The translations under genes were made by a program, and so were the position numbers. A stretch of DNA of 55,334 bases from a virus (Duplodnaviria; Heunggongvirae; Uroviricota; Caudoviricetes). Below are positions 4,092-45,024 of the stretch, piece by piece. The DNA lies in the IMG/VR virus record IMGVR_UViG_2737471838_000004, positions 1 through 55,334 of that record; one strand, 5' to 3'. The notes beneath the pieces were generated by a model. That model saw only the letters and a list, made by a program, of their open reading frames with translations. It was not told where the DNA came from and made no database searches. Within the stretch, counting starts at the first letter, position 1, and each line of letters starts with the position of its first letter.

Positions 4092-4267
4092 CGCAATGAC
4101 TCCATTATGTTAATTAACGGAATAATTCTACCATTTTGTGATCTATGTTGCATTTTATGCTTACACAAAATGTTTTGTTGATTTATATCAATATACAAAA
4201 TGTGGTTTTGTCGGATATTTAAGCCACCGGATAAACCGGATGAACCAACAAGAATGAGGATTCAAAA

Positions 4268-4516
4268 ATGAAAAACATGTTCAAAGTGGTATTATTCGCT
4301 GCGGCTGTTGCTCTTACTGGTTGCGCTGTTGACAAAGATGCTGCATTGCACAACCTGCCAAATAGCGGAGTGATTCCGCAAGAAATTGTCTATGATGCTA
4401 ATGGTCATCTTGTCTATGACACTGAAAAACTTCCGTATACTGGACAATGGTGTCATGAACTCGATCACAACATGCGCCGCATCGGTAGCCCGTCGAATTG
4501 TGTAGCTAACTACTAA
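4268..4516 (+). CDS. small secreted lipoprotein (moron, opposite strand to tail genes)
   Basis: 82 aa; signal peptide MKNMFKVVLFAAAVALTGC with lipobox LTGC; AGGA RBS; own terminator; located between J and stf. Confidence 0.6.
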   Translation: MKNMFKVVLFAAAVALTGCAVDKDAALHNLPNSGVIPQEIVYDANGHLVYDTEKLPYTGQWCHELDHNMRRIGSPSNCVANY

Positions 4517-4520
4517 AAGA

Positions 4521-4550
4521 AAACCCCGCGCGAAGCGGGGTTATTTTTTA
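4521..4550. terminator. bidirectional rho-independent terminator (ends lipoprotein gene on + and J on -)
   Basis: stem CCCCGC/GCGGGG with GCGAA loop, T-tract TTATTTTTT on +, A-run upstream giving T-tract on -; J stop codon lies in the T-tract. Confidence 0.6.
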
Positions 4551-7500
4551 TGACCAAGAACCAGAACTCCTTGTAACAAGCGCAAGTCCAGCCCTTCTTT
4601 CTGTACCTGTACTGGTGTTGGTGTATTCTTCTGTTATTGTTATGGTTACTTTTTGCGCCGTGATCCCTGTGACGCAATGTGATACCGTAAATCCAAATTG
4701 AGGCGTAGATGCCGCCCTCACGACTGAATATGTTTTACTATTTCCATTAATGTTTATTGTCACTTTTATGGTTGTTGACTGAGAATACTGATAGTAAGTC
4801 AGGTGATAAGGAATCATCACAAAAACGGTTTTAGAAAGCGAACTCGAAGACGAATCTGTATAAGTTTTAGTAACAGAACGCGATGCACTGTCCGACTGGT
4901 TAGGGAATGATGCTTGAGGTATAAAGTTAGTTGACGCGACATCGCCTACAAAACTTGTAGCCTCTAGCGACCCTTTAAATTTACCGCTATTTGCATACAC
5001 CGCCCCCCTTACCGTTACGTTGTTAAGCTCCGCGCTACCGTTTTTATTAATCATCCAGCCAGCCGAACCGGCTTTATAGTTGGTTGACTGTATTTGCTGT
5101 GCAATTTTAGCTGTAGTGATTGCTGCATCTGCAATTTTAGCCGTTCCTATTGATGCGTTTTTAATAAACGCTTCGCGCACATACATTGCACCATTTGTAA
5201 CATAGAAAGGTGTCGTATATGTGCCGTTTGCCGCCGTCATTAGCACAAAACGGTCAACAAGGAAAATGCATTGTGATTGTGTGCTACTTCCCGATCCGGT
5301 CATACCTAACGAAATCCCGGACGCATACTTCATGCCGTTATTGTCAGTAGCGATCTTAATGCTCCACGTTGCCGACATATCTGTTTCAATACCGGCAATT
5401 GCGGTTTTGTTTTCCTCGATTGATACCGATTGCCCGTCGATTGAGGCCGTGATACTTTCGATCTGCGTGGCGGTTGATTCCTTGTAAGATGTAAACGCTT
5501 CGCCCCACTCCGTGATCGATGCTTCGTTTGCTTCCAGTGATGCGCTAATCTCCGCAAACTGTGTAGCGTTGGCCTTTTCGTGGGTAGCAAGTGCCGTTTG
5601 CATTTCGGTAATGGCTGCCGACACATCATCATCGATTTGGGCTTGCAATTGCTCCAGTTTCTGCGCGGTCGCCTCCTTCTCTGTAGCAATAACTGAATCA
5701 ATGCGCTCAATTTCTGCTTTCGTTTCCGCTTTCTGGCTCTTATATTGCGCCGTTAACGATGTGCGGGTTCTGGCGTTAGCTAATGAGTTATTCATAAGCG
5801 CAATGGCTGCGTTTTGCAGGCTGGCGCGGGTCTGCATTAGCTCGTTTTCCTGCTCCGTCAATTCTACGCTGATTTCGTTAATCTGGCTTTCGTGCTCCCC
5901 AATTCCGTCCTCATTGTTTTTTATACGTTCTTCCAGATCGGCGGTTGATTCCTTCAGGTCGGTAATAGTCTGGTTCATTTCTTCCACGTCACCCATTAAA
6001 CCTCCTGTTACTTCGTCCATGGAGTCCTTGATCATGTTCTGGAATTGTTCGCTTTCCATAACTTCATTCAGCACGGCATCCGTGATTTCTTCGAAGTTTT
6101 CGGAAGGTTTACCGCTGGCTTCGATAAAGTCAGATACACCGAAAGCGTTTTTTGTGCGCACGTAAACGTAATACGTGTGCCCCGTTGCCATCCCGCCGAA
6201 GGTCCATTGATACCCGCGCCCGGTGAATTGCGCTGATGTGGTTACTTTGGATGGATCTGTGATCTGATTTTCCCCTGAGTAGTAGAACTCGTATGCTGTA
6301 TCAGTGGTTAGGGTTGTTTTGCTGATCGGGTACACCGTTGCCTGAAAAACACCAGGCACCCAATTAACGCCGACGGGGGCCGCTGGCGCACCAATAACCA
6401 GATCCACAATACTTTCTGCGCCCTTCATGCCAGTGTCATTACGACCGCGAATACCAAGCGTGTAGCTGCCTGCGTCGAGGCCATAAAATTCATAGCGGTA
6501 ATTCGTGGTTTCATAACTTGCCACCACGCGACCGTCTGCATTATATACGCGGATTTCAAAGGTAAGACGATGCGTTGTTGTCTGTGTTTCCCATGTTGCG
6601 CGGCATTGAACCGTTTCAGAACCAGCGTTTAACACTTTCAGATTTTCAATGTTAGGTACGCGGAAGTGATTAAGCGTGTCGTTGTTGATTTCGAAGACTG
6701 CGCCTTCATCAACTACGGCCTGTTTGTTAGGGTCGTGCTGTGCGGCTTCGATAGTGTATACGCTGTTATTTTCTGTTTCCGCTACGCTGGTGATCCTACA
6801 TAAAACGGGTTTTGCTGCTTCAGTCGATACAGCAAAAACAGTGCCATTGCGAATCCATGCCGGGGCCGCAGCAAGGGTAATATTGTTTCCGTTAATTCCG
6901 GTGATCTGGTGTTTTTTAAATTTACCATCGTTATCAAGTAATCTGATGGTGTCACCAGCCGCGATATATTCAGAATCAACCTTATCGACCGTTATCACTT
7001 TGCCATTGTTCGCCACGATACGACCGCCCAAACGAGCACCAGCGCGGTTATTGTCGAGGATCTCGATAATATCCCCAGGGGTGAAGTGAATGGCGTCACG
7101 GGCCATTTTAAACGTAAATTTCGACGGCTCGCGTTTTGCTGTTTCGATCAGCCATTTACCAGCGCGGTAAGCCTGTCCGCGAGAAGTACAGCCGAACGCC
7201 TCCAGCGTGGTTTCGTTGTAGCCGTCGCGGGCGATCAGTTCATCGTCAGAGACATACTCTTTTGACTGTTCCCAACCGTTACCCGGATCAGTCCAGGATA
7301 CAATCACGGCGTTGTAGCACTCAGCGCGGGCAAGGCTCGAACGGGTGAATACACCATCTACGACATTTGCGTTCGTGATAGTTGCAATCGGATCTTGTGG
7401 CGCATCAATCATCACTGTAAGACGTTGCCCATCCCATAACGCAATACCACGGAACATGCCAGCTATATTATCAAGTAAGTCGCGGGCGCTCATTTGCTCT

Positions 7501-8504
7501 GTGATGTAAGCGTTAAGCGTCATGCGAGGCTCTTTCCCACCGTAGCCATCATCAACCAACTGATCGCAATATTGTGAAAGCGTGTATAAAGCGCCATCGT
7601 CAACATCAATATAACCAGCCTGTCGAGCAAGGCCGAAACGGTCGTTTTTGATCAGGTAGCGGAACAACCACGCGGGGTTATTGGTGTACGCCTTTTTAAA
7701 GCCACCCAGCCATAAACCGGAATAAGTGCGCTTTTCCGGGTCGTAGTTATCAGGAATATCAACAATCAGTCCGCGAAGGTGATAGGTGCGGGTGGGCGTG
7801 TCAGTGTACTGATCATGATCAATCACCACTCCAGCTACAGCGGTGTGAGGATAAGACAAATTATCGTCGATGATTTCGCTGTAACTGCTCCACCGTGTAT
7901 CATTGCTAAGTAGATCGCTGTTGCTGTCTGCCGTTACTCGGCGAACGCGAATATCAAACGGCTTTTCATCCGGCGCGTTGATAATGTGAGCTTCCAAGTA
8001 TTCACCGCTCTGTTTACCAGGCCCGATGGTAATATCCTTAACCAGCGTCCACGTAGATGATGATGATGGCTTAACATCAACCATTAACATAACTGACGTG
8101 TTGTATTGATTGCCCATATCATCTGACTGAACGAGAGCGTCAACGCCAACATTTAATCTGACGCGGGTCACGTTCGGATCTGATACCGTCCTGACCAGTG
8201 GGGTGTCATGCGTTACTTTTGCGTTGACAATAACGGTTGATTCAATGGCGTTGAAGCCGTTGATTGGTGATTGATCAGCCGTACCATTACGCCATGCCAC
8301 GCTAACACCAGGGACTGATGTGTTTCCGCTTGCGTCAGTGATGGGAGTGTCATTAAGCATCACGCTGTTTAATGGAGCGGTTTGATTGACGCAGCCAAAA
8401 ATTGGACCTTCACTTAGAATATCCAGAACCCGATAAAATTGTTTGTGATACAAATTATCATTAATCAAGGTAGGTGTTTTCGCCTTACCGCCACCACTAG
8501 ACAT
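4548..8504 (-). CDS. J: host specificity / central tail fibre protein J
   Basis: ORF 4548..8543; start moved to the internal ATG (MSSGGGKAKTP) preceded by GGAGG; lambda gpJ-like N-terminal and central regions plus a long coiled-coil segment and divergent C-terminal domain. Confidence 0.85.
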   Translation of the reverse strand: MSSGGGKAKTPTLINDNLYHKQFYRVLDILSEGPIFGCVNQTAPLNSVMLNDTPITDASGNTSVPGVSVAWRNGTADQSPINGFNAIESTVIVNAKVTHDTPLVRTVSDPNVTRVRLNVGVDALVQSDDMGNQYNTSVMLMVDVKPSSSSTWTLVKDITIGPGKQSGEYLEAHIINAPDEKPFDIRVRRVTADSNSDLLSNDTRWSSYSEIIDDNLSYPHTAVAGVVIDHDQYTDTPTRTYHLRGLIVDIPDNYDPEKRTYSGLWLGGFKKAYTNNPAWLFRYLIKNDRFGLARQAGYIDVDDGALYTLSQYCDQLVDDGYGGKEPRMTLNAYITEQMSARDLLDNIAGMFRGIALWDGQRLTVMIDAPQDPIATITNANVVDGVFTRSSLARAECYNAVIVSWTDPGNGWEQSKEYVSDDELIARDGYNETTLEAFGCTSRGQAYRAGKWLIETAKREPSKFTFKMARDAIHFTPGDIIEILDNNRAGARLGGRIVANNGKVITVDKVDSEYIAAGDTIRLLDNDGKFKKHQITGINGNNITLAAAPAWIRNGTVFAVSTEAAKPVLCRITSVAETENNSVYTIEAAQHDPNKQAVVDEGAVFEINNDTLNHFRVPNIENLKVLNAGSETVQCRATWETQTTTHRLTFEIRVYNADGRVVASYETTNYRYEFYGLDAGSYTLGIRGRNDTGMKGAESIVDLVIGAPAAPVGVNWVPGVFQATVYPISKTTLTTDTAYEFYYSGENQITDPSKVTTSAQFTGRGYQWTFGGMATGHTYYVYVRTKNAFGVSDFIEASGKPSENFEEITDAVLNEVMESEQFQNMIKDSMDEVTGGLMGDVEEMNQTITDLKESTADLEERIKNNEDGIGEHESQINEISVELTEQENELMQTRASLQNAAIALMNNSLANARTRTSLTAQYKSQKAETKAEIERIDSVIATEKEATAQKLEQLQAQIDDDVSAAITEMQTALATHEKANATQFAEISASLEANEASITEWGEAFTSYKESTATQIESITASIDGQSVSIEENKTAIAGIETDMSATWSIKIATDNNGMKYASGISLGMTGSGSSTQSQCIFLVDRFVLMTAANGTYTTPFYVTNGAMYVREAFIKNASIGTAKIADAAITTAKIAQQIQSTNYKAGSAGWMINKNGSAELNNVTVRGAVYANSGKFKGSLEATSFVGDVASTNFIPQASFPNQSDSASRSVTKTYTDSSSSSLSKTVFVMIPYHLTYYQYSQSTTIKVTININGNSKTYSVVRAASTPQFGFTVSHCVTGITAQKVTITITEEYTNTSTGTERRAGLALVTRSSGSWS

Positions 8505-9063
8505 ATAGACCTCCAGTTTCGTGTAATTTCGTGTAACCGGCACCAGCTTTGTTTAGCTCTTCAATCATAAACGACCGCCACGCAACGGCGGCGTTAATCG
8601 CCATCTCGAGACCGCCCCACGACATAACGCTAAATGATTTGCTAATTCTTTTAGCGTTATCAGTGGTAATGCGTGCTCTAATAGATCTACCTTCTGCGTG
8701 CCAACACACTCCAAAAGGCAAGCCGTTAAACCTTATTGAACGACCTACAGTCATGTTTCTGGCGTTGCCTTTTTTATCTGTTACGCGTATGTTGTTGAAT
8801 TTATTGTTAAGCCCATTACCATCAATGTGATCTATGATTTCACCGCGTTTTAATTTTCTGCCGCTGCATAATTCGAAAACAATCCGGTGTGCATAATAGC
8901 GGCGGCCCTTCCATGTAATTTTCCAATACTTATTGCCGCTTTTTGCTGCTACTATTTTCCCCGCTGCGTCGCCCGCCCGTGCCGTTCTGCTGTTAGCGGT
9001 GACCTTCCACCTTAAACATGAAGGCGAATCCTCATCATAAACAAACAATTCAGACCAGTTCAC
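8497..9063 (-). CDS. HNH homing-endonuclease-like protein (HNH + AP2-like domain) inserted between tail genes I and J
   Basis: 188 aa; YAHRIVFE...GEIIDHIDGNGLNN...NIR motif pattern of HNH_3/AP2 endonucleases; paralogous to three other ORFs in the window. Confidence 0.7.
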   Translation of the reverse strand: MNWSELFVYDEDSPSCLRWKVTANSRTARAGDAAGKIVAAKSGNKYWKITWKGRRYYAHRIVFELCSGRKLKRGEIIDHIDGNGLNNKFNNIRVTDKKGNARNMTVGRSIRFNGLPFGVCWHAEGRSIRARITTDNAKRISKSFSVMSWGGLEMAINAAVAWRSFMIEELNKAGAGYTKLHETGGLYV

Positions 9064-9076
9064 TTTAACCCTCCTG

Positions 9077-9607
9077 TTAACTTACAACGTCTAGGGCGTC
9101 TTTATTATTGGTTGTGTCAATACCCAAGGAACCAACATTCGAACCTATTTTCATTTCACCCAACAGGATCGGCACTGGTCTACCCTGGCCAACCTTGTTT
9201 TCAACGCTGGTGTATGTGTTGTTAGATATGGTGTTATCTTGTGCGCTTTCTGCTGATGTTTTTATCTTCATATTGCGTGACATGAAGATCGAGAACGCAA
9301 CGCTGACAACCGAAACACCGATCAAAATCCAGCCTACAACGCCAATCCCTGCAATACCGCCTTCCACCACTGGCGCAACAATGACGGTAGTTCCGTCCGG
9401 GTATTTACTGTTAACCGCTGCGGGCGCGGTCTTTTCGTTATAATCTTTTCCGGCAATCCTCAGGCGCAATGGGGTACTTAAAAACGCCTTTTTGAACTCA
9501 TGATTCTGCGCAACCAGTAAGTTAAGCCCTTGCGCTGGCGTATCAACGCTTAAACACACCTTGCCGTAATATCTTCGAAGATTGCCCGTAAATCTAAATT
9601 TGAGCAT
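9077..9607 (-). CDS. I: tail assembly protein I
   Basis: 176 aa; position after K; hydrophobic central segment and C-terminal LLGEMKIGSNV similar to lambda gpI (LYGEMRVGSRV). Confidence 0.7.
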   Translation of the reverse strand: MLKFRFTGNLRRYYGKVCLSVDTPAQGLNLLVAQNHEFKKAFLSTPLRLRIAGKDYNEKTAPAAVNSKYPDGTTVIVAPVVEGGIAGIGVVGWILIGVSVVSVAFSIFMSRNMKIKTSAESAQDNTISNNTYTSVENKVGQGRPVPILLGEMKIGSNVGSLGIDTTNNKDALDVVS

Positions 9608-10281
9608 TTGTCAGATCTCCATATTGAGTTGGTCTGTCGAACATACGCAGGCCGCATTTGCTCGCGGCGGCTTAATAGTCCGGCATTGTCATGATGCAAA
9701 ACAGTATTGTCTCCCAGGTAAATCATCGCGTGACATGGGTCAGCGCCTTTAAACGGCTGGCGGATAATCACATCACCTGGCTGAATGCTTTGCGCGTCAA
9801 CCTGATAAAACCCGTTTAGCGGCAAGTTTTTTAAATACAGGTTTTCCCCACGCAGCCACCACCCATCGTTGCGCTCAAAGTCCGGTAGATCCACGCCACA
9901 AAGGTGATAGGCGTCACGGAAAAGCGAGTAACAATCTGTTTTCCCGTGCTCAAATTTACGGCCCAACAGGTGAGCCACCGGGCGGAATTTTCTAACCATG
10001 CCACCGGAACACAAATACCACGGCAGGCCGGAAATAACCTGCTGTTGTCGATCCCGTGCTGACAATATCAACGAATTGTCAGTATGGGAGTGAAAAACGG
10101 CGGTTATAACGCCTAATTCGTCAGCTTTGATATAATCGTCAGGCGATATTTTAAAGCTGTTGTGCGGCGTTTCAGACACGTTTAAGCACGGGTAAAAATA
10201 ATCGTTATCTATCACCAACCCGCACACTTCCTCGCGCTGGTGGGCTGCCGCATAGCGAATCATTTTATCTTCAAGTGCCAT
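9550..10281 (-). CDS. K: tail assembly protein K (MPN/JAMM + NlpC/P60 domains)
   Basis: ORF 9550..10377 trimmed to the ATG abutting the L stop; JAMM motif HSHTD and NlpC/P60-like Cys (DCYSLF); conserved position between L and I. Confidence 0.75.
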   Translation of the reverse strand: MALEDKMIRYAAAHQREEVCGLVIDNDYFYPCLNVSETPHNSFKISPDDYIKADELGVITAVFHSHTDNSLILSARDRQQQVISGLPWYLCSGGMVRKFRPVAHLLGRKFEHGKTDCYSLFRDAYHLCGVDLPDFERNDGWWLRGENLYLKNLPLNGFYQVDAQSIQPGDVIIRQPFKGADPCHAMIYLGDNTVLHHDNAGLLSRREQMRPAYVRQTNSIWRSDKCSNLDLRAIFEDITARCV

Positions 10282-10283
10282 AA

Positions 10284-10988: not shown

Positions 10989-11041
10989 TTTATCACCTTG
11001 TCATTTTGTGATCGCCATCACGCTAAATCATACCAAAACGG

Positions 11042-11070
11042 TTGATAGCGCTTTTTACAATATGTATATT
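11042..11070 (+). promoter_or_regulatory. sigma70-like promoter of moron cassette B (TTGATA-17-TATATT), -10 overlapped by inverted repeat ACAATAT-gt-ATATTGT
   Basis: near-consensus -35/-10 with 17-bp spacer in the L/M intergenic region, upstream of plus-strand ORFs. Confidence 0.4.
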
Positions 11071-11116
11071 GTACTCAAAAGGAAGCATGGTTAACAAAAT
11101 GGCGCGGAGGTGTTAT

Positions 11117-11272
11117 ATGGCTGACAAGGTGTGGAGGTTGACGGTGTTCCTGGCTGATGGCAGGGAAATGACTGTAGCTCTGTATAAAGACGAAGGCGAG
11201 GCACTGACTGACGCGCTTTTACTTGCTGAAGATGACCGCGTTTTGGGGTACAGGATAGAACCTGTCAAATGA
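11117..11272 (+). CDS. hypothetical small protein (moron cassette B)
   Basis: ORF 11042..11272 trimmed to the ATG preceded by GGAGG (MADKVWRLTV...); alternative start at 11087. Confidence 0.4.
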   Translation: MADKVWRLTVFLADGREMTVALYKDEGEALTDALLLAEDDRVLGYRIEPVK

Positions 11273-11284
11273 GAGGTTAACAAA

Positions 11285-11896: not shown

Positions 11897-12052
11897 GTGA
11901 CAGATTATGAAAAATAGAAGTTTTGGCGCTAATAATAATGGGACTGATAGTATTTGGCGTTCATGCTGCCGATTGGGACTGGGCGGCGATAGCCAATAAT
12001 ATGGCGCACGCACACCCAATGAGTTTGCTGTATATTAACTACTAAAAGAAAA

Positions 12053-12080
12053 CCCCGCACGAAGCGGGGTTGTTTTTATA
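12053..12080. terminator. bidirectional rho-independent terminator, near-identical to the one at 4521..4550
   Basis: stem CCCCGC/GCGGGG, loop ACGAA, T-tract; about 41 bp including the preceding AACTACTAA shared with the 4509..4550 site (2 mismatches). Confidence 0.6.
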
Positions 12081-12630: not shown

Positions 12631-12729
12631 GATTCCCCCTATAAGTTACATATTGCATACATCTTTACGCGCTTCTACGCGAAAAATGATAACTTCGTCA
12701 CAAGAATTATACCCAGTTTACGAAATGGC

Positions 12730-12758
12730 TTCACACAGGACGCAACAAGATGTATACA
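12730..12758 (+). promoter_or_regulatory. candidate promoter of moron cassette C (TTCACA-17-TATACA) with upstream AAATGGC module
   Basis: 17-bp spacer; the 12-mer AAATGGCTTCAC is shared with the cassette D promoter at 15951..15962. Confidence 0.35.
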
Positions 12759-13230: not shown

Positions 13231-13533
13231 GGTGAAATATGGATGACGATAAATTCACCTGGCGGGAGATCTGGAACATCTGGCAGGTGATGTTTGCTCG
13301 CAGCTACATAGCAAGAAACGGCAGGTTGTGATTTGCGGAGGAAAATAAAATGAAAAACCCGGCAAATAAAAGCAATGTAAAACGTATGGCATGGGTGCTA
13401 AAATATATGGATAGCAAAGGGGATACATATACATGTCCATTTTTCAGGTATACTGACGCGGTGTTTACAAGAAGTGTACACGGAGGGAAAATTGAGAGAG
13501 GATATACAAGATTTGAGAATAACTAAAAGATAA

Positions 13534-13560
13534 CCCCGGCATTGTACCGGGGTTTTGTTT
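13534..13560. terminator. bidirectional rho-independent terminator (cassette C / tape measure gene)
   Basis: stem CCCCGG/CCGGGG, loop CATTGTA, T-tract TTTTGTTTATTTG; preceded by TAAAAGATAA. Confidence 0.55.
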
Positions 13561-15907: not shown

Positions 15908-15940
15908 GATTTAACCTCGTAAAGTGTGATCCTGATCTCT

Positions 15941-15986
15941 ATTTTATACAAAATGGCTTCACTTCAACGAATACATTTTGTATAAA
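15941..15986 (+). promoter_or_regulatory. candidate promoter of moron cassette D (TTCACT-17-TATAAA) bracketed by a perfect 13-bp inverted repeat TTTATACAAAATG / CATTTTGTATAAA
   Basis: inverted repeat arms overlap the -35 upstream region and the -10; located just upstream of plus-strand small ORFs. Confidence 0.4.
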
Positions 15987-16280
15987 GAGGCTAAAGGAAA
16001 GGGATAGAGTAAAGGGATTTAGAAGACCGGATTAACCGGAGGAAGCAAAAGAGGATAAGAAAATGAAAAACTACTACCGACCCAACGAGCATGAGCACTA
16101 TGCCGACTTTATCGAAGAAATGCTGAAAGCACTTAAAAACAAGAAATAAGCTGGGCAGGCAAATGGACACAATCAAAACAGTTATAGATGTATATATTAC
16201 GGCATGGTTAGCATTTAATGTGATGGCTGTGCTAGTGCTGGCAATGACAACCGAAGATAAACGTAATTAGGGGGTGTATC

Positions 16281-23361: not shown

Positions 23362-24742
23362 TATCGCGGCTGGAGGTATTCGCCTGATTATCTTCTTCAC
23401 CTTCATCATCGTTTTCCTCTTCCGTTTCCACTACACTGGCAGGGCCATCGTATCCGGCAGCCTCGCGGATCTCGTCACCGCTAAATATTTCTTCACCAGT
23501 AGCCAAACAAGCCTGATTGATTTGTGCCATTTTGTGTGCCGCTTCCAGTAGTTCGGCTTTGGTCATGGCGTTCAGGTCGTCCCATATCACTGATACGTCA
23601 ATTGGCATACTGATAAGGCGGAGATCTGCCATCTTGCTGAATAGATCCTCAAGTTCACCGCCGATTTCCTCCCTGCGGGTCATACAGCGGCTGTTGAAGT
23701 AGCGGAGGTCTTCGGTTGATGCGCGTTCGCCCTGCTGGTTCCCAACCAGGATGCGAGTCGGAATATCAATACCAGCGGCGGCGGTTTGCAGGTTGACATC
23801 ATAGGTTGCTGACGGGTCAGATACGGCAGTCACCAGCGGGCTAACTGTGGCCCCTTGTAATGCCATCATCACGTCGTTACCCTTATTCATTTCATCCGCT
23901 GCCTCGTTGAATTTTTCTCGAAGCTCTGTGACGTCGCATCCGTATGTGGCTGCCAGTGACCGGAAGTCAATATCCTTGTCGAACGAGATAGCTAACTGGC
24001 GGGCAGCGTTTTTCAGGAATGATTCACCGCTACCCCCTTCCACTTTCTCAAGCGACACAAAGGCGTTATATGACGGCTCAAGGAAGGCTATTGCATCATC
24101 AGAATAGTCACCGAAGATGAATATGCGGTCAGGGTGGATCCTTCTTGCTATGGTCTTACTGTTAATGCGTTCCTTGTACTCCCACCACGTCGGCAGGCCA
24201 TAGTTTTCATTATCCGGGTTTTCTTCGAAGTCCTTCGGCGTCAGAGCACCAGCCCATGCCGGGGTAAATTTGGCAATGCCTACGCCTTTTGTCACAGGCT
24301 GGTCCCACGCCTTACCATCTCTGACATGAATCAACAGGCCAGCATAACGACCGATGAGGCGGCGGCGGTCACATTCGGCAATGACGCGCCAAAATCTGTT
24401 GTCGAACTGTTTCTTGATTTCTCTTTCCCAGGGTGTTTCCTTTTCGGCCTTCTCGTCTTCGGTTCCCTCGATTAGCGTTGGCATGGTTCTCCAGCAGGTA
24501 GTGACAATCTTTTCTACAGCACCATGAGCGATACCACCGCGACGATACAGCTTGTATAGATCGTCATAGGTTATTTCTTCTTTGAATCCGTATTCACTCC
24601 ACGCAGCATCACGTTTGGCATCTATCCCCATAGTGAATGGGTGTGCTGCGGCATAGCGGGCGTAGGCCGCCTGGCGTTGAGACAAGGCAGCATTAACCGC
24701 CAATTCTAAATTGGATGGCATAATGTTTACTCCTGAATACAT
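23351..24742 (-). CDS. portal protein
   Basis: 463 aa; acidic C-terminus, position after TerL; start may be ATG at 24721 (AGGAG RBS) rather than 24742. Confidence 0.75.
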   Translation of the reverse strand: MYSGVNIMPSNLELAVNAALSQRQAAYARYAAAHPFTMGIDAKRDAAWSEYGFKEEITYDDLYKLYRRGGIAHGAVEKIVTTCWRTMPTLIEGTEDEKAEKETPWEREIKKQFDNRFWRVIAECDRRRLIGRYAGLLIHVRDGKAWDQPVTKGVGIAKFTPAWAGALTPKDFEENPDNENYGLPTWWEYKERINSKTIARRIHPDRIFIFGDYSDDAIAFLEPSYNAFVSLEKVEGGSGESFLKNAARQLAISFDKDIDFRSLAATYGCDVTELREKFNEAADEMNKGNDVMMALQGATVSPLVTAVSDPSATYDVNLQTAAAGIDIPTRILVGNQQGERASTEDLRYFNSRCMTRREEIGGELEDLFSKMADLRLISMPIDVSVIWDDLNAMTKAELLEAAHKMAQINQACLATGEEIFSGDEIREAAGYDGPASVVETEEENDDEGEEDNQANTSSRDNAI

Positions 24743-31297: not shown

Positions 31298-31593
31298 GAT
31301 TCAACCCTTCTGGTTTGATGGGCCATCCGGCCAGTGTTTTATTTTTCTTCGTCTCATTTAAATCCTAAACACTCAGCGTATTCGTCAATGCTTAATGCTT
31401 CTTCACCTGGTGCCAGCAATTCAAAGTAGCGGGCGTATAGTTCAAAAACCCATGCTGGATATTTAGCGTTAGCGTTCATTTTCTTGTCTCCCCTTCCGTC
31501 TTCTTTGACTTATATATAACAAAACGGCACTGCCGAAACAATGCCATTCTGTATACTTTGCGAGGTAGATCACATTTATTGATGCGAACAACA

Positions 31594-37081: not shown

Positions 37082-37240
37082 AATGCTCTCTCCTTTTCAG
37101 GTGATTTCTACGCATTTCAGCGCTGCCGGATTTTTAAAGAGCATTTCGTTTGCTTGAAGTATACAAAATGGATACACCATAACAAGACAAAAAGCGCCAT
37201 TATGTGATCCGCATCACGCAATGACGCCATTTTGTAAATT

Positions 37241-38565: not shown

Positions 38566-39016
38566 ACTTCACATCAAGCCGATTAGTAATCTTACCACCG
38601 TTAAACATCACAGGTGGGATTGTCCCCAGTACAATAGATGGTTCTGGTCCAGCAGGATCAGCAAAAGTTTTCTTCAATCCACCGATAGGGAGATCAAAAA
38701 CGCCCTGTTTCTTTCTTTGTTCTTCCTCCCGCTCCGTTAATATTTGCTCCGCTTTTAGCGCGTTATAAGCAATAAGGTCTATAAGAGTATCGAGCGGGTC
38801 GCTACCATTGCTTAAAACGGCCTCTAATCGCGCCTCCTTGAGACAAATTAGCAGATCCCATACATCAAGCGGGGTTAAATTTGTCCCCTTCTTAGCGTTG
38901 TAAATATTTGCTATTTTTGGCGCTGATTTTTCTTCTTTTCGATCGTATCCGTTTTGTTCCCCTCTTGCCTCAATAGTTTCAGCCGCAAGTCTTAGCAATT
39001 CAGCCGCTTTACTCAT
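38504..39016 (-). CDS. hypothetical protein
   Basis: ORF 38504..39034 trimmed to MSKAAELL; function unknown. Confidence 0.45.
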   Translation of the reverse strand: MSKAAELLRLAAETIEARGEQNGYDRKEEKSAPKIANIYNAKKGTNLTPLDVWDLLICLKEARLEAVLSNGSDPLDTLIDLIAYNALKAEQILTEREEEQRKKQGVFDLPIGGLKKTFADPAGPEPSIVLGTIPPVMFNGGKITNRLDVKFDNESLLRAAGYHKNGKGDN

Positions 39017-39548
39017 TTTCTGCACCTCTTGCATATAGCTCTTTACGTGTTATCTGCGTGAAAATACATTCATGTCTGCATCGTGGATGCCAGATCAAGA
39101 ACAAACTCCCTTTATTGTTTCCGCTTGCTGGTTTACCCGTCGCAGCATTGATAAACGCCAGCCGCCCTCGCGTAATTAATCGGCATTCGTTTGCCGTCTC
39201 CACGCCGTTCATAAACCAGTTAACAGAGATGTCGGCGGGCAACAACATTACACAGCCAATATGATTTCGGTGATGTTCCGTTGCTGCCTTATCAACGAAT
39301 GGCCCCGGATTAGAATATGGTGGATTAAGCCAGACATACTCACCAGGCATTGCCACCGCTCCCCACGGATAATGCAACGTGTCCATTTCTTCTGTTATAT
39401 ATCGCGGGATTAATGCGTTTGCCTTGTTTGCCGCCACGTCAGCGACGAATTCGAATTCACGATCCATTCCTCTAAAAACTGGTTTTGGCGTTTGCCATAA
39501 GTCCTTTATTTCTTTTGGCGTATGGCTTCCGCCGTAATCATTTTTCAT
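39009..39548 (-). CDS. dam: DNA N6-adenine methyltransferase (phage Dam-like)
   Basis: 179 aa; catalytic NPPY motif in WLNPPYSNPGPFV. Confidence 0.8.
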   Translation of the reverse strand: MKNDYGGSHTPKEIKDLWQTPKPVFRGMDREFEFVADVAANKANALIPRYITEEMDTLHYPWGAVAMPGEYVWLNPPYSNPGPFVDKAATEHHRNHIGCVMLLPADISVNWFMNGVETANECRLITRGRLAFINAATGKPASGNNKGSLFLIWHPRCRHECIFTQITRKELYARGAENE

Positions 39549-39557
39549 TACGCCCCC

Positions 39558-39791
39558 TTAGAAATAATCCTGATCAGTCCCCCAGCGGTTATTTAGATAC
39601 CCCACCAACCACACAAAACGCTCAATGCTAATTAGCGGGGCGACCTTGCGATAATGCTTGTCGAGTATCAGCCGCGTGGCTTTATCGCTGTATCCGTTCT
39701 TTTCTACCTCCGCTTTGCAGGCAGAAAGCGCCGCGCGTGCGGCAGTTTTTACGGCGTTGAATTGCGGCTCTGACAGGTTGAATAAAGCCAT
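39558..39791 (-). CDS. hypothetical protein
   Basis: 77-aa ORF in early-left operon. Confidence 0.4.
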   Translation of the reverse strand: MALFNLSEPQFNAVKTAARAALSACKAEVEKNGYSDKATRLILDKHYRKVAPLISIERFVWLVGYLNNRWGTDQDYF

Positions 39792-39793
39792 AA

Positions 39794-40045
39794 TTAAAAA
39801 GGATCATCCCAATCTGGCGCGGCAGTCCAGCAAAACCCGATAAATGCACTAACCGTTAATAAAGCGCGCCCTGCGGCAAGGATCTCGCCTATTTCGTTAA
39901 ATTCAGGCAGTGACCACGTAATAAACATTGCCCCCAGCATAATAACAACGATAACAGCCATGAACGCCAGGAAAACAAAAAGCGTAGCTAAAAGCCACGC
40001 TCCCAACCAGTTTAAAAAGCTCTTAACCATTTTAAACGTCCTCAA
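39794..40045 (-). CDS. small membrane protein
   Basis: 83 aa with two hydrophobic helices. Confidence 0.4.
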   Translation of the reverse strand: MRTFKMVKSFLNWLGAWLLATLFVFLAFMAVIVVIMLGAMFITWSLPEFNEIGEILAAGRALLTVSAFIGFCWTAAPDWDDPF

Positions 40046-40235
40046 TCACCCCGTCTTTTACACGCTCTTTAATATCCCAAACGTGAGGCTTGCATATTTC
40101 CTGATAATAGTGATCTGGCCTGCTGCCAAAATACCATTTGCCATCCATATAAAAATAAACGCCAGAAAAATTTCCTGGCGCTGCCTTTGTTGCTGATTCT
40201 GGAATTTTCCATTCTTTATAGTGTTTAAACTTCAT
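40032..40235 (-). CDS. hypothetical protein
   Basis: 67-aa ORF. Confidence 0.35.
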   Translation of the reverse strand: MKFKHYKEWKIPESATKAAPGNFSGVYFYMDGKWYFGSRPDHYYQEICKPHVWDIKERVKDGVIEDV

Positions 40236-40419
40236 GAGCTTTTAAATAACCTCTTCTGAATGCTTTGATGTAAAGTCCTAGCCTTCTTATATGCTGAACG
40301 CCATCAATGATGCGCACTAAATAAATCGCCCCGTTTGCGTCAGATACAAAACGACAACCAAAACCAATGCCGACTAACTTCAGGTTTTCAGGTATTCTAT
40401 AATCAGTTTCCTGTTCCAT
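40225..40419 (-). CDS. hypothetical protein
   Basis: 64-aa ORF. Confidence 0.35.
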   Translation of the reverse strand: MEQETDYRIPENLKLVGIGFGCRFVSDANGAIYLVRIIDGVQHIRRLGLYIKAFRRGYLKAHEV

Positions 40420-40517
40420 GCCTCACCTCATATGGTATTCAATAAACCACCTGATAAACAGGCATAAGGCAATAAAACCCCAGCAAATGCACATAAATAA
40501 CAATGTGTCGTCCATAG

Positions 40518-40736
40518 TTAAGCCTCAATTAATCCGTAGTCGAATTTACCCAAATATCTTTCAAGGCTAACGACTTCAATACCATCTACACATCTCTTCC
40601 ACACAGACACCTGGCTTTCATTTTCCCTGAAGTGCATATTAGAAAGCACTTCATCGGCTGGATAGCTTTTCCCGGCGACGTAGGCATCATGACCTACGCC
40701 ACCTTCTACGCAATAAAGCATGAATTCGCGTTCCAT
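40518..40736 (-). CDS. hypothetical protein
   Basis: 72-aa ORF. Confidence 0.4.
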   Translation of the reverse strand: MEREFMLYCVEGGVGHDAYVAGKSYPADEVLSNMHFRENESQVSVWKRCVDGIEVVSLERYLGKFDYGLIEA

Positions 40737-40835
40737 TTTGGCTTCCTCCGCACCGTAAACCTTTTGATTTCGGCTTACAAAACGGATATGCGATCACAAT
40801 ACAAAATGTATATTTATGTGATCTGAATCACTCGG

Positions 40836-41456
40836 TTAATGCAGTACACGTTTTCCCTGTTCAGGCATCGGCTGTGCGTTTTTCCGTGCATCATTAAGCA
40901 CAGCGATAGCCGCCTGTACACCGAAATCATTTGCGCGCATATCATTGCCAACCATTTCACCGTAAAACAGCGGCATAAACGCTTTTACTTCTTCTTCTTT
41001 ATGGCCTTCCTCAATGCATTTCTGTAACATCTTAACTTCAAAGATGTTTTTCATCAGTCCGCGCATAGAATGCAGTGAAACACTACCAAGCTGATCCTTG
41101 TTCAACGGGAAAATAACAGCACTTCCGAACGCGAGCGGATCAACCTCTTCCGGCACTGGTACGCGTCCGAATTCTTCCTCCATGCGCTTCACAAAAGTAA
41201 GAGAGAATACATAACGCGCTACCGATGTTTTTTCTTCCATACTTAAAGACACGTAATCGCGGATTGACGCACCCATCACAATATCAACAACCTGTAGCGC
41301 CAGATTTAAATCAGCGTCATACGCGCCAGCTTCCATATCTTTCAATACTTCGTGATAATCCTTCGTTTCCACTTCATGAAAACTTGCGTCTTCAGTGTAG
41401 CGAGTGATTAACATGCCATCGCTGCCGAGTGAATAAGCTGTTTTGATGTCGTTCAT
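40836..41456 (-). CDS. hypothetical protein
   Basis: 206-aa ORF. Confidence 0.5.
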   Translation of the reverse strand: MNDIKTAYSLGSDGMLITRYTEDASFHEVETKDYHEVLKDMEAGAYDADLNLALQVVDIVMGASIRDYVSLSMEEKTSVARYVFSLTFVKRMEEEFGRVPVPEEVDPLAFGSAVIFPLNKDQLGSVSLHSMRGLMKNIFEVKMLQKCIEEGHKEEEVKAFMPLFYGEMVGNDMRANDFGVQAAIAVLNDARKNAQPMPEQGKRVLH

Positions 41457-41469
41457 GATGTTTAGCCTT

Positions 41470-41802
41470 TTATAGTGGGTGATGCCATTTCATTTCAGTT
41501 TCTGGATTAAACGGGTTTCCTTCTCTTGAAAGGAATAAATCACGCTCCCGTTTCAGTTCTTCCGGACTTATTTCTATTTCATCAATCTGACCGAACGATC
41601 CTGGCATCATTCGTTTTAAATCAGATAGCGGACGCATAAGGCCGCAACCGCGTAACAGCATATCGACCGCGAATTGCCGCCGCCCGCCAGCGTCATTGAA
41701 GCGCCGCGCCCAGGACACAACCACGATCCGGCGTTCGAACTCAATAAATAGTGATAGCTTGTTTGATTCTGCATCATATGCTTTATGGAATTTAATTTTC
41801 AT
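41470..41802 (-). CDS. hypothetical protein
   Basis: 110-aa ORF. Confidence 0.45.
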   Translation of the reverse strand: MKIKFHKAYDAESNKLSLFIEFERRIVVVSWARRFNDAGGRRQFAVDMLLRGCGLMRPLSDLKRMMPGSFGQIDEIEISPEELKRERDLFLSREGNPFNPETEMKWHHPL

Positions 41803-41983
41803 TTAACACCTCGACGTATTGCTCAAGATGCCATTGACCCACCTCGTCGTAATCTTCATCGAATATTGTTACTTGACCGCCTGGCCCGAAATAAAAGGCA
41901 GTAGCAATAAATTCATACCCGAACCACGCGCGGAGTTTTTCACCACCGTTCAGGTGTTTAACCTTCACTAATTTTATAGCCAT
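41792..41983 (-). CDS. hypothetical protein
   Basis: 63-aa ORF. Confidence 0.35.
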   Translation of the reverse strand: MAIKLVKVKHLNGGEKLRAWFGYEFIATAFYFGPGGQVTIFDEDYDEVGQWHLEQYVEVLNEN

Positions 41984-42246
41984 ACGCCGAACATCCCATT
42001 CAGACCAGCGAACAACCGCCGCCAGTGGTTTTCAACATAAGCCCGGAACGGCTTAACGCGAACATTGCGGGCCTTCAGTTCAATCTTGTCGAAGAAACGC
42101 GGCTCTATAATTGTTCCATCCAGATATTTAACCAGGATCGGGCGCTCAAGATCGTTATATGTCTTGTTCAGCACGACCAGCCCAGGGTCACTACGATATG
42201 CTGGCAAAACAACGAGATCACCAGCTTTTGCATTCCACGGAGTCAT
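41974..42246 (-). CDS. hypothetical protein
   Basis: 90-aa ORF. Confidence 0.4.
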   Translation of the reverse strand: MTPWNAKAGDLVVLPAYRSDPGLVVLNKTYNDLERPILVKYLDGTIIEPRFFDKIELKARNVRVKPFRAYVENHWRRLFAGLNGMFGVWL

Positions 42247-42483
42247 AACATCACCCCTTTACCAATAAGGCCAATCACCGCAGCCAGTGCGCCACAAAAG
42301 ACAACCGTAAACAGGAAGCAAATAACGCAAAACGCGACCGTTACAATATCATTACTGACTTTCATAATTAGCCTCACATATTAGTAATCAGTTTTATGAT
42401 CGCCACCGTAATATAAAGCGATACGCTGAGATACAGCACCGCCACCGCTACCGCCGCAAGCAATGCGGCAATTTTTGCAAGAT

Positions 42484-42735
42484 TCATTTCCCGCCCTCCG
42501 CAATGAATTTATCAAGCCATTTGTTATTCGCCAGTCGTTCGGCATCTTCGCCAAATGATTTACGTTCGCTTAATTCCTGTAGAGTAGGGAAAGGCCATTT
42601 GTCGTGCCACCCTGCCGACGCTTCGAACTCATAGTTTCCGCCGCCGAACTCGATAAACACATCGCTATCATCAATGTTTTCCTGGTTTCTCTGAAAACAT
42701 CTGCCGTTATTTTCGCTTAATGTTGTGGCTGTCAT
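42484..42735 (-). CDS. hypothetical protein
   Basis: ORF 42484..42963 trimmed to MTATTLSENN to avoid overlap with upstream gene. Confidence 0.35.
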   Translation of the reverse strand: MTATTLSENNGRCFQRNQENIDDSDVFIEFGGGNYEFEASAGWHDKWPFPTLQELSERKSFGEDAERLANNKWLDKFIAEGGK

Positions 42736-42748
42736 GATTAACACCTCA

Positions 42749-43054
42749 TTAATCGTTAATAACCTGGCCCATACGACCGCGATATTTGCGCATACGTGGA
42801 TCGACATATTCAGGCCAGTGCATATCCGGTTTTCTTTGCAGTGGGTAAAAACTTGCTTGCCAGTTGTCGAACCATATTTGCTTTGCGTACAGGTCACTAA
42901 ATCTTTTTGCCATCCGTTCCGCTGCCGTGCCGCATAAAAAAAGCCCATGATCGATTTGATCACGGGCTTCTTTTAATACTTGCTCTTTTGTTCGCGGAAT
43001 CGGTGGCGCATTAAGATAATGCGTAGATTCTGCTTTTGCCATACTGTAAACCAA
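42749..43054 (-). CDS. hypothetical protein
   Basis: 101-aa ORF directly downstream of ssb; start uncertain. Confidence 0.4.
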   Translation of the reverse strand: MVYSMAKAESTHYLNAPPIPRTKEQVLKEARDQIDHGLFLCGTAAERMAKRFSDLYAKQIWFDNWQASFYPLQRKPDMHWPEYVDPRMRKYRGRMGQVIND

Positions 43055-43478
43055 TAGGACTGAATGGAATATCGTCGTCGAAGTCCATCGGCGGCGGATT
43101 ATTCCCGTTATTATTCTGCTGCTGCGGCGGCGCTTTCTGCTGCTGGCCTTGCTGCTGGCCTTGTTGGTTGACGTTCATGAATTCGAACTCATTAACCGCC
43201 ACTTCGACCGCCGTCCCCTTCGTGCCATCGTTCCGGTCAAACTGCCGAACATCCAGGCGACCGCTTACCACTATCTTTCCACCCTTGCGGATATGCGGCG
43301 CTAATTTTTCCGCACGCTCACCAAATACCAGACAAGTGATCCACATTACCCGCTTATTATCGCCGTAGCCATTCGTTACAGCTAACGGAAAACTACCAAT
43401 AGCTTTCCCGTTTTGCGTGTAGCGCACTTCCATATCATTACCGATATTCCCGCCCAGCGTGATTGAATTTAAACTCAT
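43011..43478 (-). CDS. ssb: single-stranded DNA-binding protein
   Basis: 155 aa; OB-fold region, Gln/Gly-rich linker and acidic C-terminal tail DFDDDIPF. Confidence 0.85.
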   Translation of the reverse strand: MSLNSITLGGNIGNDMEVRYTQNGKAIGSFPLAVTNGYGDNKRVMWITCLVFGERAEKLAPHIRKGGKIVVSGRLDVRQFDRNDGTKGTAVEVAVNEFEFMNVNQQGQQQGQQQKAPPQQQNNNGNNPPPMDFDDDIPFSPIGLQYGKSRIYALS

Positions 43479-44113
43479 TAATTGATCTCCCCGTTAAGCT
43501 CTTTTAAGCGAATGTCATAAACGTCTTTCGCTTTCTGTTGTTGTTCTGAATCCTTAGGCAATAGCTTCCAGCACTTGCCGAAGATCTCGCGTAACTTGTT
43601 AGCGTCAGGCGCTTTTGCTGCTGCATCACAGAAACGTGCTAATACTTCATCAGGATTTGGCGGCGCTTTCTGCTGCTGTTGTTTTGGCGGGTTTTTCTGC
43701 TGTCGCGGCTGTTGATTTGTCTGTTTCGCGTAAGCATCAGTATCAGGATCTTTTGCGTCATCAATGCAGAATAAGCCGTTCAAAGCATATTTTCGCGCGT
43801 AACTTGATGTCGCTCCTGTTAGCTGGCTTGCATCCATACCCTTCTTGCTTTCTTCCTCCCTGGCGTAAGCAGTTACCGCTATTACGTCTTCACCGTCGCT
43901 TAATGTTGCAGTTGCTTTCACATAATAGCGATTGCCGATCAGGACAATTTCATCACTTACAGTCAGCGTGATATTTTGAAGCAGTGGTTTAACCGCCTCT
44001 AGAATATCCTCCGCCGACCTGTAATTATACCCGCCAAAATTATTACGCTGATTTTTCGGCGCGTTCAGCGTTTGCTGAATCGTCCACAGCTTTTTGTGTA
44101 ACTCTGTTTTCAC
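43478..44113 (-). CDS. erf: Erf-family single-strand annealing protein
   Basis: 211 aa; N-terminal region with YNYRSAEDI typical of ERF recombinases; GTG start with AAGGAGA RBS; adjacent to ssb. Confidence 0.65.
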   Translation of the reverse strand: MKTELHKKLWTIQQTLNAPKNQRNNFGGYNYRSAEDILEAVKPLLQNITLTVSDEIVLIGNRYYVKATATLSDGEDVIAVTAYAREEESKKGMDASQLTGATSSYARKYALNGLFCIDDAKDPDTDAYAKQTNQQPRQQKNPPKQQQQKAPPNPDEVLARFCDAAAKAPDANKLREIFGKCWKLLPKDSEQQQKAKDVYDIRLKELNGEIN

Positions 44114-44262
44114 TATTTAATCTCCTTCGCTGTTAACACTACGTATAAGGCTTTATTCGCGGCGCTCCACATTTCGGCATCGTGAAGCATTTCCGCTACA
44201 GCCAGTTTGAATTGAAGCGCCTCGATAACCATAATGTCACCTCCTGCTGTTTACATTTTGTA

Positions 44263-44553
44263 TTAATGGTAGCGGACTTTATCCAGGGGTTTTTCCCCTA
44301 GTTGGCGTGGTTGCGTTGCGTGGTAGTAGTTGCCGCTTTCATTCTCCGTATACCATTTTACTGATCCTTTGCGACGTTCTTTAATGCTATTTGATTTGCA
44401 TCTTTCCTCGTTTGCAAAGCGAATAGCTTTATCCACATTGTCTGTTTTATTAATTGCAGGTGATGATTTTCTTTCGTTTTCTCTTTTTATTCTTCTGCGT
44501 TCCCTGGCATTCATTTTGCTATCACATTTGCCATACATAATTGTAACGGTCAT
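44263..44553 (-). CDS. N: N-like transcription antiterminator (arginine-rich motif)
   Basis: 96 aa; N-terminus MTVTIMYGK...NARERRRIKRENERK resembles the P22 N-type arginine-rich boxB-binding motif; AAGGAGA RBS; first gene downstream of pL-like promoter and nutL-like site. Confidence 0.55.
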   Translation of the reverse strand: MTVTIMYGKCDSKMNARERRRIKRENERKSSPAINKTDNVDKAIRFANEERCKSNSIKERRKGSVKWYTENESGNYYHATQPRQLGEKPLDKVRYH

Positions 44554-44608
44554 AATCTGATCTCCTTATATCCTTGATGATACTTAATAAAAATCATCTT
44601 CGTTAATT

Positions 44609-44646
44609 GCCGCACTTCCAGCGGCTGACCAGATTGTTAAAGAGCG
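44609..44646 (-). promoter_or_regulatory. nutL-like site: boxA (CGCTCTTTAACAA) + 8-nt spacer + boxB-like hairpin (GCCGC TGGAAGT GCGGC)
   Basis: read on minus strand in the leader between pL-like promoter and N; boxA matches the CGCTCTTTAACAA consensus. Confidence 0.45.
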
Positions 44647-44903
44647 GCTTAACATCTTTCAACTAATCCCGCAATCATCGCCGTTTCCGGTGTGACCCTG
44701 CTCACTCCAAGCAAGCTGACTCGTCGCCTTGCGTGCGGTTTCGTGGGGGATGTGACGCTTTAGACACCCCATGCGCCTTGTTATCAGTGCCGCTTTCGGT
44801 CCCCCAGCGGGGAGTTACTCCACGGTTGACAAGGTGTTAAGCCTGATTTTTTAAAGTGCCTGGAAGGTGCTTTTTTGTTTCCTGCCTCCTTCCTTTGATT
44901 CGC

Positions 44904-44932
44904 AATATACGCCCTGTGATATGTCGAGTCAA
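44904..44932 (-). promoter_or_regulatory. pL-like early-left promoter (TTGACT-17-TATATT)
   Basis: near-consensus sigma70 promoter downstream of the cI terminator, reading toward N; preceded by TATACAAAATGG. Confidence 0.5.
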
Positions 44933-45024
44933 TCCATTTTGTATACTTTTTTTAAAATATCTTCTATCTCATTGATTTTTAAATGATAAAAACCGTTTTT
45001 GGTTTACGTTTTGGTGCTTTCCGG

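Follow-up and report, generated by a model that had tools for sequence, protein, structure and literature searches.

A recurrent intergenic motif in an mEp021-type prophage as the probable core of an operator for its lambda CI-type repressor

The window analysed here is the whole of a 55,334-bp stretch of DNA (IMG/VR virus record IMGVR_UViG_2737471838_000004), an Escherichia coli prophage integrated beside abgT with about 89% identity to the mEp021 and mEpimmI phages, in which the nonamer YACAAAATG, that is (T/C)ACAAAATG, recurs between genes. This motif is probably the conserved core of an approximately 15-bp operator of Rep, the lambda CI-type repressor of the prophage, and is probably used also outside the immunity region. 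Its location, its overlap with predicted promoters, the spacing of its copies and its co-variation with the recognition helix of the repressor are those which, judged from sequence, would be expected of an operator. A single repressor, Rep021, confers immunity to the whole mEp021 group, whose operators were left undefined in the group paper, being said only to differ from those of lambda, and which carries three rather than two nut sites (PMC11893012). Phages of the mEp021 type are reported to be as frequent as lambdoid phages in human faecal samples, with one immunity repressor common to all of them. On the minus strand of the window the repressor gene is followed by a terminator, a pL-like promoter, a nut-like box, an N-like gene and recombination genes, and further on by a Q-like gene, lysis genes and the head and tail genes. 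The replication operon runs rightward from 46010, and plus-strand morons break the tail region at four places.

The motif occurs 15 times on the two strands of the window. Dinucleotide shuffles gave an expectation of 1.96 copies, with none of 100 shuffles reaching 15, an order-3 Markov model gave 1.28, and the top over-represented 8-mer of the whole window was CATTTTGT, the complement core of the motif. The recurrence and enrichment pointed out in an earlier sequence-only reading are thus borne out by the test against shuffled sequence. All eight copies listed in that reading exist, with coordinates shifted by 1-3 nt, and four further intergenic copies (37162, 37228, 40800 and 50080) were absent from it. 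Its statement that the motif always lies in non-coding DNA applies to 12 of the 15 copies; those at 23528, 30696 and 54455 lie in coding sequence, a number close to chance.

Exact copies on the plus strand: 4164-4172, 4194-4202, 15947-15955, 37162-37170, 40800-40808
Exact copies on the minus strand: 4132-4140, 11002-11010, 15974-15982, 23528, 30696, 37228-37236, 44254-44262, 44935-44943, 50080-50088, 54455

Seven copies with one or two mismatches (12719, 31545, 40776, 45742, 45779, 48422 and 53469) were assigned to the same set, and at four of these (12719, 45742, 45779 and 53469) the homologous position is perfect in 12-30 relatives. Altogether about 20 sites were mapped, 12 of them exact and nearly all intergenic. 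A literature search with the motif string returned primer sequences only.

In a sequence logo, flanking information was confined to about -2 to +12, which results in the 15-bp frame TATAC-AAAAT-G(T/G)A(T/A)(T/A) with an invariant C at +2, an invariant G at +8 and a right half leaning to G(T/G)A(T/A)(T/A). Read in this frame, the motif would comprise a consensus half-site, an A-tract spacer and the first G of a weaker half. The right half-site GTATA serves at the same time as the first part of a -10 hexamer, so that the complement CATTTTGTATA often reads as a -10. Other descriptions of the motif were discarded: enrichment of the generalised palindrome ACAWWWTGT was due solely to ACAAAATGT, a 434-type frame (ACAA-N6-TTGT) fitted, by eye, the 4164 copy alone, and an RNA-level signal was ruled out by copies in both orientations relative to the local mRNA.

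The motif is the element shared by the two control regions that flank the repressor gene, whose features are the following.

44931-44945, minus strand: OL2, TATAC-AAAAT-GGATT, motif at 44935-44943, ending 2 nt before the pL -35 and centred at about -41
44906-44920, minus strand: OL1, ATCAC-AGGGC-GTATA, overlapping the pL -10 (GTATATT), 25 bp from OL2 centre to centre
44904-44932, minus strand: predicted pL-like early promoter, TTGACT-17-TATATT
45057-45704, minus strand: gene of the CI-like immunity repressor Rep, 215 aa, with HTH_3 and Peptidase_S24 domains (Pfam), the proposed binder of the motif
45740-45754, plus strand: ORa, GTCAC-AAAAC-GTATT, in the cI/pR intergenic region, reading CACAAAACG here and CACAAAATG in 12 relatives
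45775-45789, minus strand: ORb, TTTAC-AGAAT-GGAGC, 35 bp from ORa, reading TACAGAATG here and TACAAAATG in 25 relatives

When the pL region was compared with the cI/pR intergenic region, the best 17-mer match was centred on the motif (TCCATTTTGTATACTTT versus TCCATTCTGTAAACTTT, 15 of 17 positions), and no other word of at least 9 nt was common to these two regions of the window. The pL-like promoter matches 10 of 12 hexamer positions, and in a scan of 30.5-50.4 kb a single promoter-like match ranked above it and none on the operon strand did; a boxA-like CTTTAAAAA lies downstream of it at 44848-44856. ORb overlaps the -10 of a predicted rightward promoter, TTGATC-16-TAAACT. The spacing that the sequence-only reading had found to be the same at pL and at a moron cassette (D, below) is indeed identical, the motif ending 2 nt before the -35 in both: TACAAAATG-ga-TTGACT-17-TATATT at pL and TACAAAATG-gc-TTCACT-17-TATAAA at 15947.

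Rep matches the lambda CI structure 3BDN over both domains (E=2e-19) and is 93-100% identical within the mEp021 group. As a full-length homologue of lambda CI it may plausibly form cooperatively binding dimers. A contig scan with the repressor as query gave no matches. In mEp021 itself (MH706966.1) the deposited Rep021 coding sequence starts at 11218 (198 aa), and an open reading frame start at 11167 gives the N-terminus MKTKWYDLAK..., which stands just before the helix-turn-helix and is kept even in homologues with 36% identity; the deposited gene model probably lacks the first 17 codons. The protein encoded at the Cro position (46010-46255, 81 aa) is not an HTH_3 Cro and has weak winged-helix matches only (HTH_36, HTH_Crp_2, Rrf2), and a sister phage (L170) carries a conventional HTH_3 Cro of 75 aa there. 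Presumably the lytic, Cro-type counterpart of Rep would recognise the operator as well.

Among the homologues examined, the site type co-varied with the repressor recognition helix. Sites of this type recur in the OR and OL of homologues with an identical or related helix (56, 52, 51, 47 and 36% identity), whose control regions between cro and the repressor gene and after the repressor gene contain two or three T(A/G)TAC-N5-GTA sites at spacings of 33-34 and 25-27 bp.

P0008 (locus L170), 56% identity, identical recognition helix GITKGGLSHWLNGRREP: sister phage with the same layout
P0009 (L173), 52% identity: TATAC-N5-GTAT three times in OR (33 and 26 bp apart) and three times in OL (34 and 25 bp apart)
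P0013 (L174), P0020 (L176) and the 36%-identical L167/L169, related helices: TATAC-N5-GTAT site type
P0035 (L177, Shewanella), variant helix: three TGTAC-N5-GTA sites, with the form TGTAC-N5-GTACA

In the sister phage, the promoter beyond the repressor terminator has an exact motif immediately ahead of its -35 and ATCAC-AAGGC-GTATA across its -10, at the same place as OL1, and exact and near copies of the motif are found between cro and the repressor gene. The sites of L173 include TATACATTTTGTATT, the complement of AATACAAAATGTATA. The control locus L178, whose repressor (P0055) has a homologous C-terminal domain and a P22 C2-type helix, had none of these sites and carried P22-type operators instead. 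The site type thus tracks the DNA-binding helix into otherwise different prophages, which is expected of an operator and not of an UP element or a host-factor site.

Concordantly, the motif is specific to the group. Its density is 3.2-3.8 copies per 10 kb in the mEp021 group (85 loci), compared with 0.16 per 10 kb in phages that share tail gene L alone at about 72% identity (37 loci). The positional conservation that the sequence-only reading had asked to see in related phages was found, motif positions being kept across more than 40 relatives: the 44254 copy is present in 42 of 42 related loci and the pL copy in 43 loci, unchanged in 33 unique relatives. Over eight intergenic alignments the mean minor-allele fraction was 0.036 in motif columns and 0.094 in other columns, a 2.7-fold lower variability (Mann-Whitney p=4e-7, which is indicative only since the sequences are related). 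Both copies at 15947/15974 are near-invariant while the intervening 18 nt drift, and at pL in same-immunity relatives the spacer between -35 and -10 varies while the OL2 motif and the YAC...GTATA positions of OL1 are fixed.

Outside the immunity region, sites of this type are dispersed over the tail region and both early operons.

4128-4142, minus strand: A1, ATCAC-AAAAT-GGTAG, between the tail-fibre gene (1596-4091, minus strand) and a lipoprotein moron (4268-4516, plus strand)
4162-4176, plus strand: A2, TACAC-AAAAT-GTTTT, 34 bp from A1
4192-4206, plus strand: A3, TATAC-AAAAT-GTGGT, 30 bp from A2; TACGAAATG in most relatives
10998-11012, minus strand: B1, ATCAC-AAAAT-GACAA, 14 nt ahead of the tail gene L start codon
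11054-11068, no strand assigned: B3, near-palindromic variant TTTAC-AATAT-GTATA inside the best-scoring predicted moron promoter, TTGATA-17-TATATT (11042-11070)
12717-12731, plus strand: C1, TTTAC-GAAAT-GGCTT, preceding by 2 nt the -35 of TTCACA-17-TATACA, a predicted moron promoter; 30 relatives have a perfect TACAAAATG
12742-12756, plus strand: C2, GCAAC-AAGAT-GTATA, covering the -10 of that promoter at 25 bp from C1
15945-15959, plus strand: D1, TATAC-AAAAT-GGCTT, lying at -41 relative to TTCACT-17-TATAAA, the predicted promoter of a moron, and covering the -10 of the promoter that faces it
15970-15984, minus strand: D2, TATAC-AAAAT-GTATT, mirror image of D1, 25 bp from it, with predicted TTCGTT-17-TATAAA towards the tape-measure gene
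31541-31555, minus strand: E1 (tentative), TATAC-AGAAT-GGCAT, 2 nt before ATTGTT-17-TTATAT, upstream of a gene starting at 31478; the loci fetched for the conservation comparison lacked a homologous region
37160-37174, plus strand: F1, TATAC-AAAAT-GGATA, whose complement CCATTTTGTATACT provides the -10 of a predicted internal promoter
37158-37185, minus strand: predicted internal early promoter, TTGTTA-16-TATACT, conserved in relatives, 10-17 nt upstream of a boxA (37134-37141)
37194-37208, minus strand: F2, variant ATCAC-ATAAT-GGCGC in a terminator hairpin, with F1 at 34 bp and F3 at 30 bp
37224-37238, minus strand: F3, TTTAC-AAAAT-GGCGT, motif at 37228-37236
40774-40812, plus strand: G1 and G2, CTTAC-AAAAC-GGATA and AATAC-AAAAT-GTATA, 24 bp apart, between two early-left genes and oriented opposite to transcription
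44250-44264, minus strand: H, AATAC-AAAAT-GTAAA, in the gap that separates the N-like gene from the small gene after it
48418-48432, minus strand: I, TTAAC-AAAAT-GTATA (AACAAAATG), just before the Shine-Dalgarno sequence of a right-operon gene
50076-50090, minus strand: J, TTTAC-AAAAT-GGAAT, between an HNH endonuclease gene and a DnaB-type helicase gene
53465-53479, minus strand: K, TATAC-AAAAT-TCCAG, intergenic after a NinB-like gene; TACAAAATT here, perfect in 13 relatives

The description of the motif as a mark of moron boundaries holds in that all four divergent tail-gene/moron junctions have copies, and is too narrow in that copies also lie inside both early operons. The two-site, 25-bp module of pL is repeated at the predicted moron promoters C (12717-12756) and D (15945-15984), and D1 and D2 serve two interdigitated, divergent predicted promoters, one directed to the moron and the other to the tape-measure gene. 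Spacings within clusters are 25 bp (OL, C and D), 24 bp (G), 34/30 bp (A and F) and 35 bp (OR), which echo the arrays of the homologues and correspond to the roughly 2-3 helical turns at which neighbouring dimers could bind cooperatively. Among 27 recurrent contexts, promoter-like hexamer pairs peaked at two offsets, which place the operator centre near -41 or near -16: in the first the -35 begins 2 nt past the motif (4 contexts, compared with 0.18 expected per offset), and in the second the -10 begins inside the complement. In unidirectional gaps, four sites (H, F2, F3 and E1) are oriented with transcription and six (G1, G2, F1, I, J and K) against it.

Cluster F reads, along transcription, as F3, the hairpin with F2, CCATTTTGTATACT (F1 fused to the -10) and the boxA of nutR2; the hairpin is followed by a T-run, and in relatives its arms are conserved and its centre is variable. 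This boxA (37134-37141) belongs to the published nutR2, at the position given for the group (PMC11893012). We propose a third early promoter under the control of the repressor, to which nutR2 would belong.

The single copies H (44250), I (48418) and J (50076) lie just upstream of Shine-Dalgarno sequences. The corresponding gene starts (44233-44262, minus strand; 48422-48452 and 50080-50110, plus strand) each combine an operator copy with TGT(A/T)AAC, GGAGG and (A/T)(A/G)ACAT(T/A)ATG, with the A-tract flipped among them, and a relative (L011:5926) has the forward form of this context upstream of the homologue of the 48450 gene. The extended context looks like a reused gene-start cassette. At J, the reading frame 49465-50073, at the position of the mEp021 HNH endonuclease, ends 7 nt before the motif, and relatives share the helicase-side flank and differ on the other side, so that a mosaic junction adjoins the operator.

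In the mechanism that we envisage, Rep dimers would bind these sites, cooperatively where they are paired. At pL the -35 lies between OL1 and OL2, which are 25 bp apart, and the -10 is covered, and a cooperative dimer pair may shut the promoter as at lambda OL1/OL2. Rep would occlude the -10 and -35 of the predicted promoters at pL, C, D, F and ORb and would hold these promoters silent in the lysogen. A site centred at about -41 is placed as lambda OR2 is with respect to pRM, so that activation may occur where there is no second site over the -10. The lipoprotein moron would be the obvious candidate for such activation, and the single copies may act as roadblocks or looping anchors.

Several observations weigh against this assignment. 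The strong asymmetry of the site, whose right half is weakly conserved, is not usual with symmetric CI dimers and leaves the fixed AAAAT spacer in the dispersed copies unaccounted for. A free-spacer TATAC-N5-GTATA was not enriched genome-wide (26 sites with at most two mismatches, compared with 21.9 expected); there is no excess beyond the A-tract copies, which implies that the dispersed copies need the AAAAT core. OR has two sites only, both imperfect, and inspection by eye found no third at a distance of 25-30 bp from either. No promoter is predicted near copies H, I, J, K and B1. Superinfection exclusion is mediated by the class of lipoprotein encoded beside cluster A (PMC11893012), and this moron is expected to be expressed in lysogens, a poor fit to simple repression. 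Moreover, the homologue comparison covered a handful of hand-picked loci whose control regions were read by eye after a mismatch scan, and the relatives within the group are only about 10% diverged, which limits the power of the conservation analysis.

The group-specific density also bears on the suggestion that the motif is a host-factor site, used for instance jointly with CRP to couple prophage promoters to host physiology: it is 20 times lower in other coliphages with this tail gene, which presumably infect similar hosts. What speaks for a host factor is the neighbourhood of the copies. Among the seven top-scoring CRP-like sites of the window, five lie no more than about 50 bp from a motif copy, all seven intergenic TGTGATC heptamers adjoin one, and the arms of the CRP-like palindromes are conserved in relatives while the centres vary. 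CRP-like dyads (TGTGAT-N4-ATCACA and weaker forms) were found at 4137-4152, 11007-11022, 15925-15940, 31559-31574, 37203-37218 and 40817-40832. The nonamer itself is not a TGTGA-N6-TCACA dyad, and we rejected it as a CRP site; the CRP-like dyads neighbour or partly overlap some copies. TGTGATC is not enriched overall (14 heptamers compared with 9.2 expected), and part of the TGTGAT association reflects the variant half-site GTGAT/GTGAC of A1, B1, OL1 and ORa, the left half of B1 being one arm of a GTGAT-N4-ATCAC palindrome; the second arm and the remainder of the association are not accounted for in this way. No host-factor consensus, including those of sigma-32, IHF, DnaA, Fis, TyrR, OmpR and GadE, is known to match the motif convincingly. 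Overall, we consider a host-factor site improbable.

An equally small chance is given to the motif being a passive hitch-hiker, a word within a promoter or gene-start cassette or a recombination linker that was copied by module exchange and has no binding function outside pL and OR. Copies at mosaic junctions, such as the one beside the HNH insertion at 50080, and the longer gene-start context TGTAAAC..GGAGG..AACATTATG shared by H, I and J would suit such an origin. Against it, the flanks of different copies are unrelated, at each locus the motif is kept while the adjoining bases drift, and the regular spacings of 25 and 34/30 bp would be unexpected of passive copies.

The sequence-only reading had offered a binding site for a phage or host regulator and an UP-element-like promoter module as alternatives; of these, a phage regulator site is favoured by the element shared between pL and cI/pR and by the arrays at repressor homologues, and the UP element is not. 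In the latter, the A-tract at -43 to -40 would be a proximal subsite for the RNA polymerase alpha C-terminal domain that boosts early and moron promoters and was spread with the promoter cassette. The proximal subsite consensus of UP elements is AAAAAARNR. Least probable of the three rivals by a narrow step, an UP element would agree with the position of the motif at exactly -46 to -38, 2 nt before the -35, at pL, 12719, 15947 and 15974 (and at pL of the sister phage), with its match to 7 of 9 consensus positions and with the A-rich run directly upstream of it at pL, but this geometry occurs in only 4 of the 27 recurrent contexts, the others being opposite, over a -10 or without promoter-like sequence in the tested geometries, the conserved T, C and G positions are not UP features, copies occur in both orientations, over -10 hexamers, beside Shine-Dalgarno sequences and inside operons, and the site type follows one repressor family, with classic triple arrays between cro and the repressor gene.

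Assignment of the motif to Rep would provide a concrete operator sequence and a candidate map of about 20 sites for a group without defined operators, which can be tested with the existing pRep021 construct. The element would be new as a previously undefined operator, and it is unusual in its dispersal as complete arrays far beyond the immunity region. Judged by this distribution, control by the repressor probably extends far beyond that region. More tentatively, and with somewhat more doubt than confidence, we suggest that Rep is a genome-wide regulator of its own prophage, with full two- or three-site arrays, spaced exactly like the immunity operators, at every tail-gene/moron junction, that of the superinfection-exclusion lipoprotein gene among them, and at a third early promoter with its own nut site. 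If so, one protein would set accessory-gene expression, block stray late transcription and gate three N-dependent early units compared with two in lambda, which would account for the need of the group for a third nut site. If the arrays are bound, the superinfection-exclusion lipoprotein and other morons would be tied to the immunity switch, and the CI paradigm of operators at OL and OR only would extend to the dispersed-operator logic of P1 and mycobacteriophage L5.

Further repeated elements were observed in the window. Three reverse-oriented moron cassettes end in bidirectional terminators (4522-4542, 12051-12071 and 13532-13554) that are nearly identical to one another (AACCCCGC...GCGGGGTT) and have a T-run on either strand. 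The moron leaders 4226-4270, in front of the 82-aa lipoprotein gene, and 16027-16066, in front of a short open reading frame of about 28 codons, are paralogous (CCGGAT(A/T)AACCGG, a purine-rich stretch and ATGAAAAAC). Within the replication-protein gene (46277-47305), GGGTAGTGTCA(C/G)AG(T/A)GACACC is repeated six times in tandem at 46555-46690 with a period of about 22-23 bp; these repeats look like origin iterons, as in lambda O.

Compared with known systems, the motif shares with the UP element proximal subsite an A-tract at -46 to -38 at four or five promoters, and differs from it in sequence-specific non-A positions, occurrence in both orientations, copies away from promoters and the link to a repressor family. 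The C1 repressor of phage P1 binds asymmetric 17-bp operators that are dispersed over the genome at several promoters in single and paired overlapping forms. The present sites resemble these as asymmetric operators at many places of the genome and at separate promoters; unlike them, they have another operator composition and would be bound by a CI-type protein, to which C1 is unrelated, and P1 persists as a plasmid prophage that is regulated by another circuit. In L5 and other cluster A mycobacteriophages the repressor recognises more than 20 short asymmetric sites, the stoperators, which are found at the early promoter and, throughout the genome, in small gaps between genes; their orientation follows transcription, and the repressor is a monomer that contains two DNA-binding domains (PMC9283540). 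Many asymmetric sites in intergenic gaps across the genome are common to both systems, but the mixed orientation of the sites described here and the nature of Rep, a CI-type helix-turn-helix and S24 protein rather than a monomeric two-domain repressor, rule out the stoperator class. With the lambda CI/Cro operators OL1-3 and OR1-3 the present sites share a repressor of one family, Rep being a full-length homologue of lambda CI, and the layout of repressor gene, terminator and leftward early promoter with an N-like gene and a nut site; in both phages sites overlap the -35 and -10 of early promoters, neighbours are 24-25 bp apart, and each site consists of a strong and a weak half. In contrast to lambda, the operator proposed here has another sequence with a conserved A-tract spacer, two recognisable sites rather than three in each of OL and OR, and at least a dozen extra copies beyond the immunity region, up to 40 kb away.

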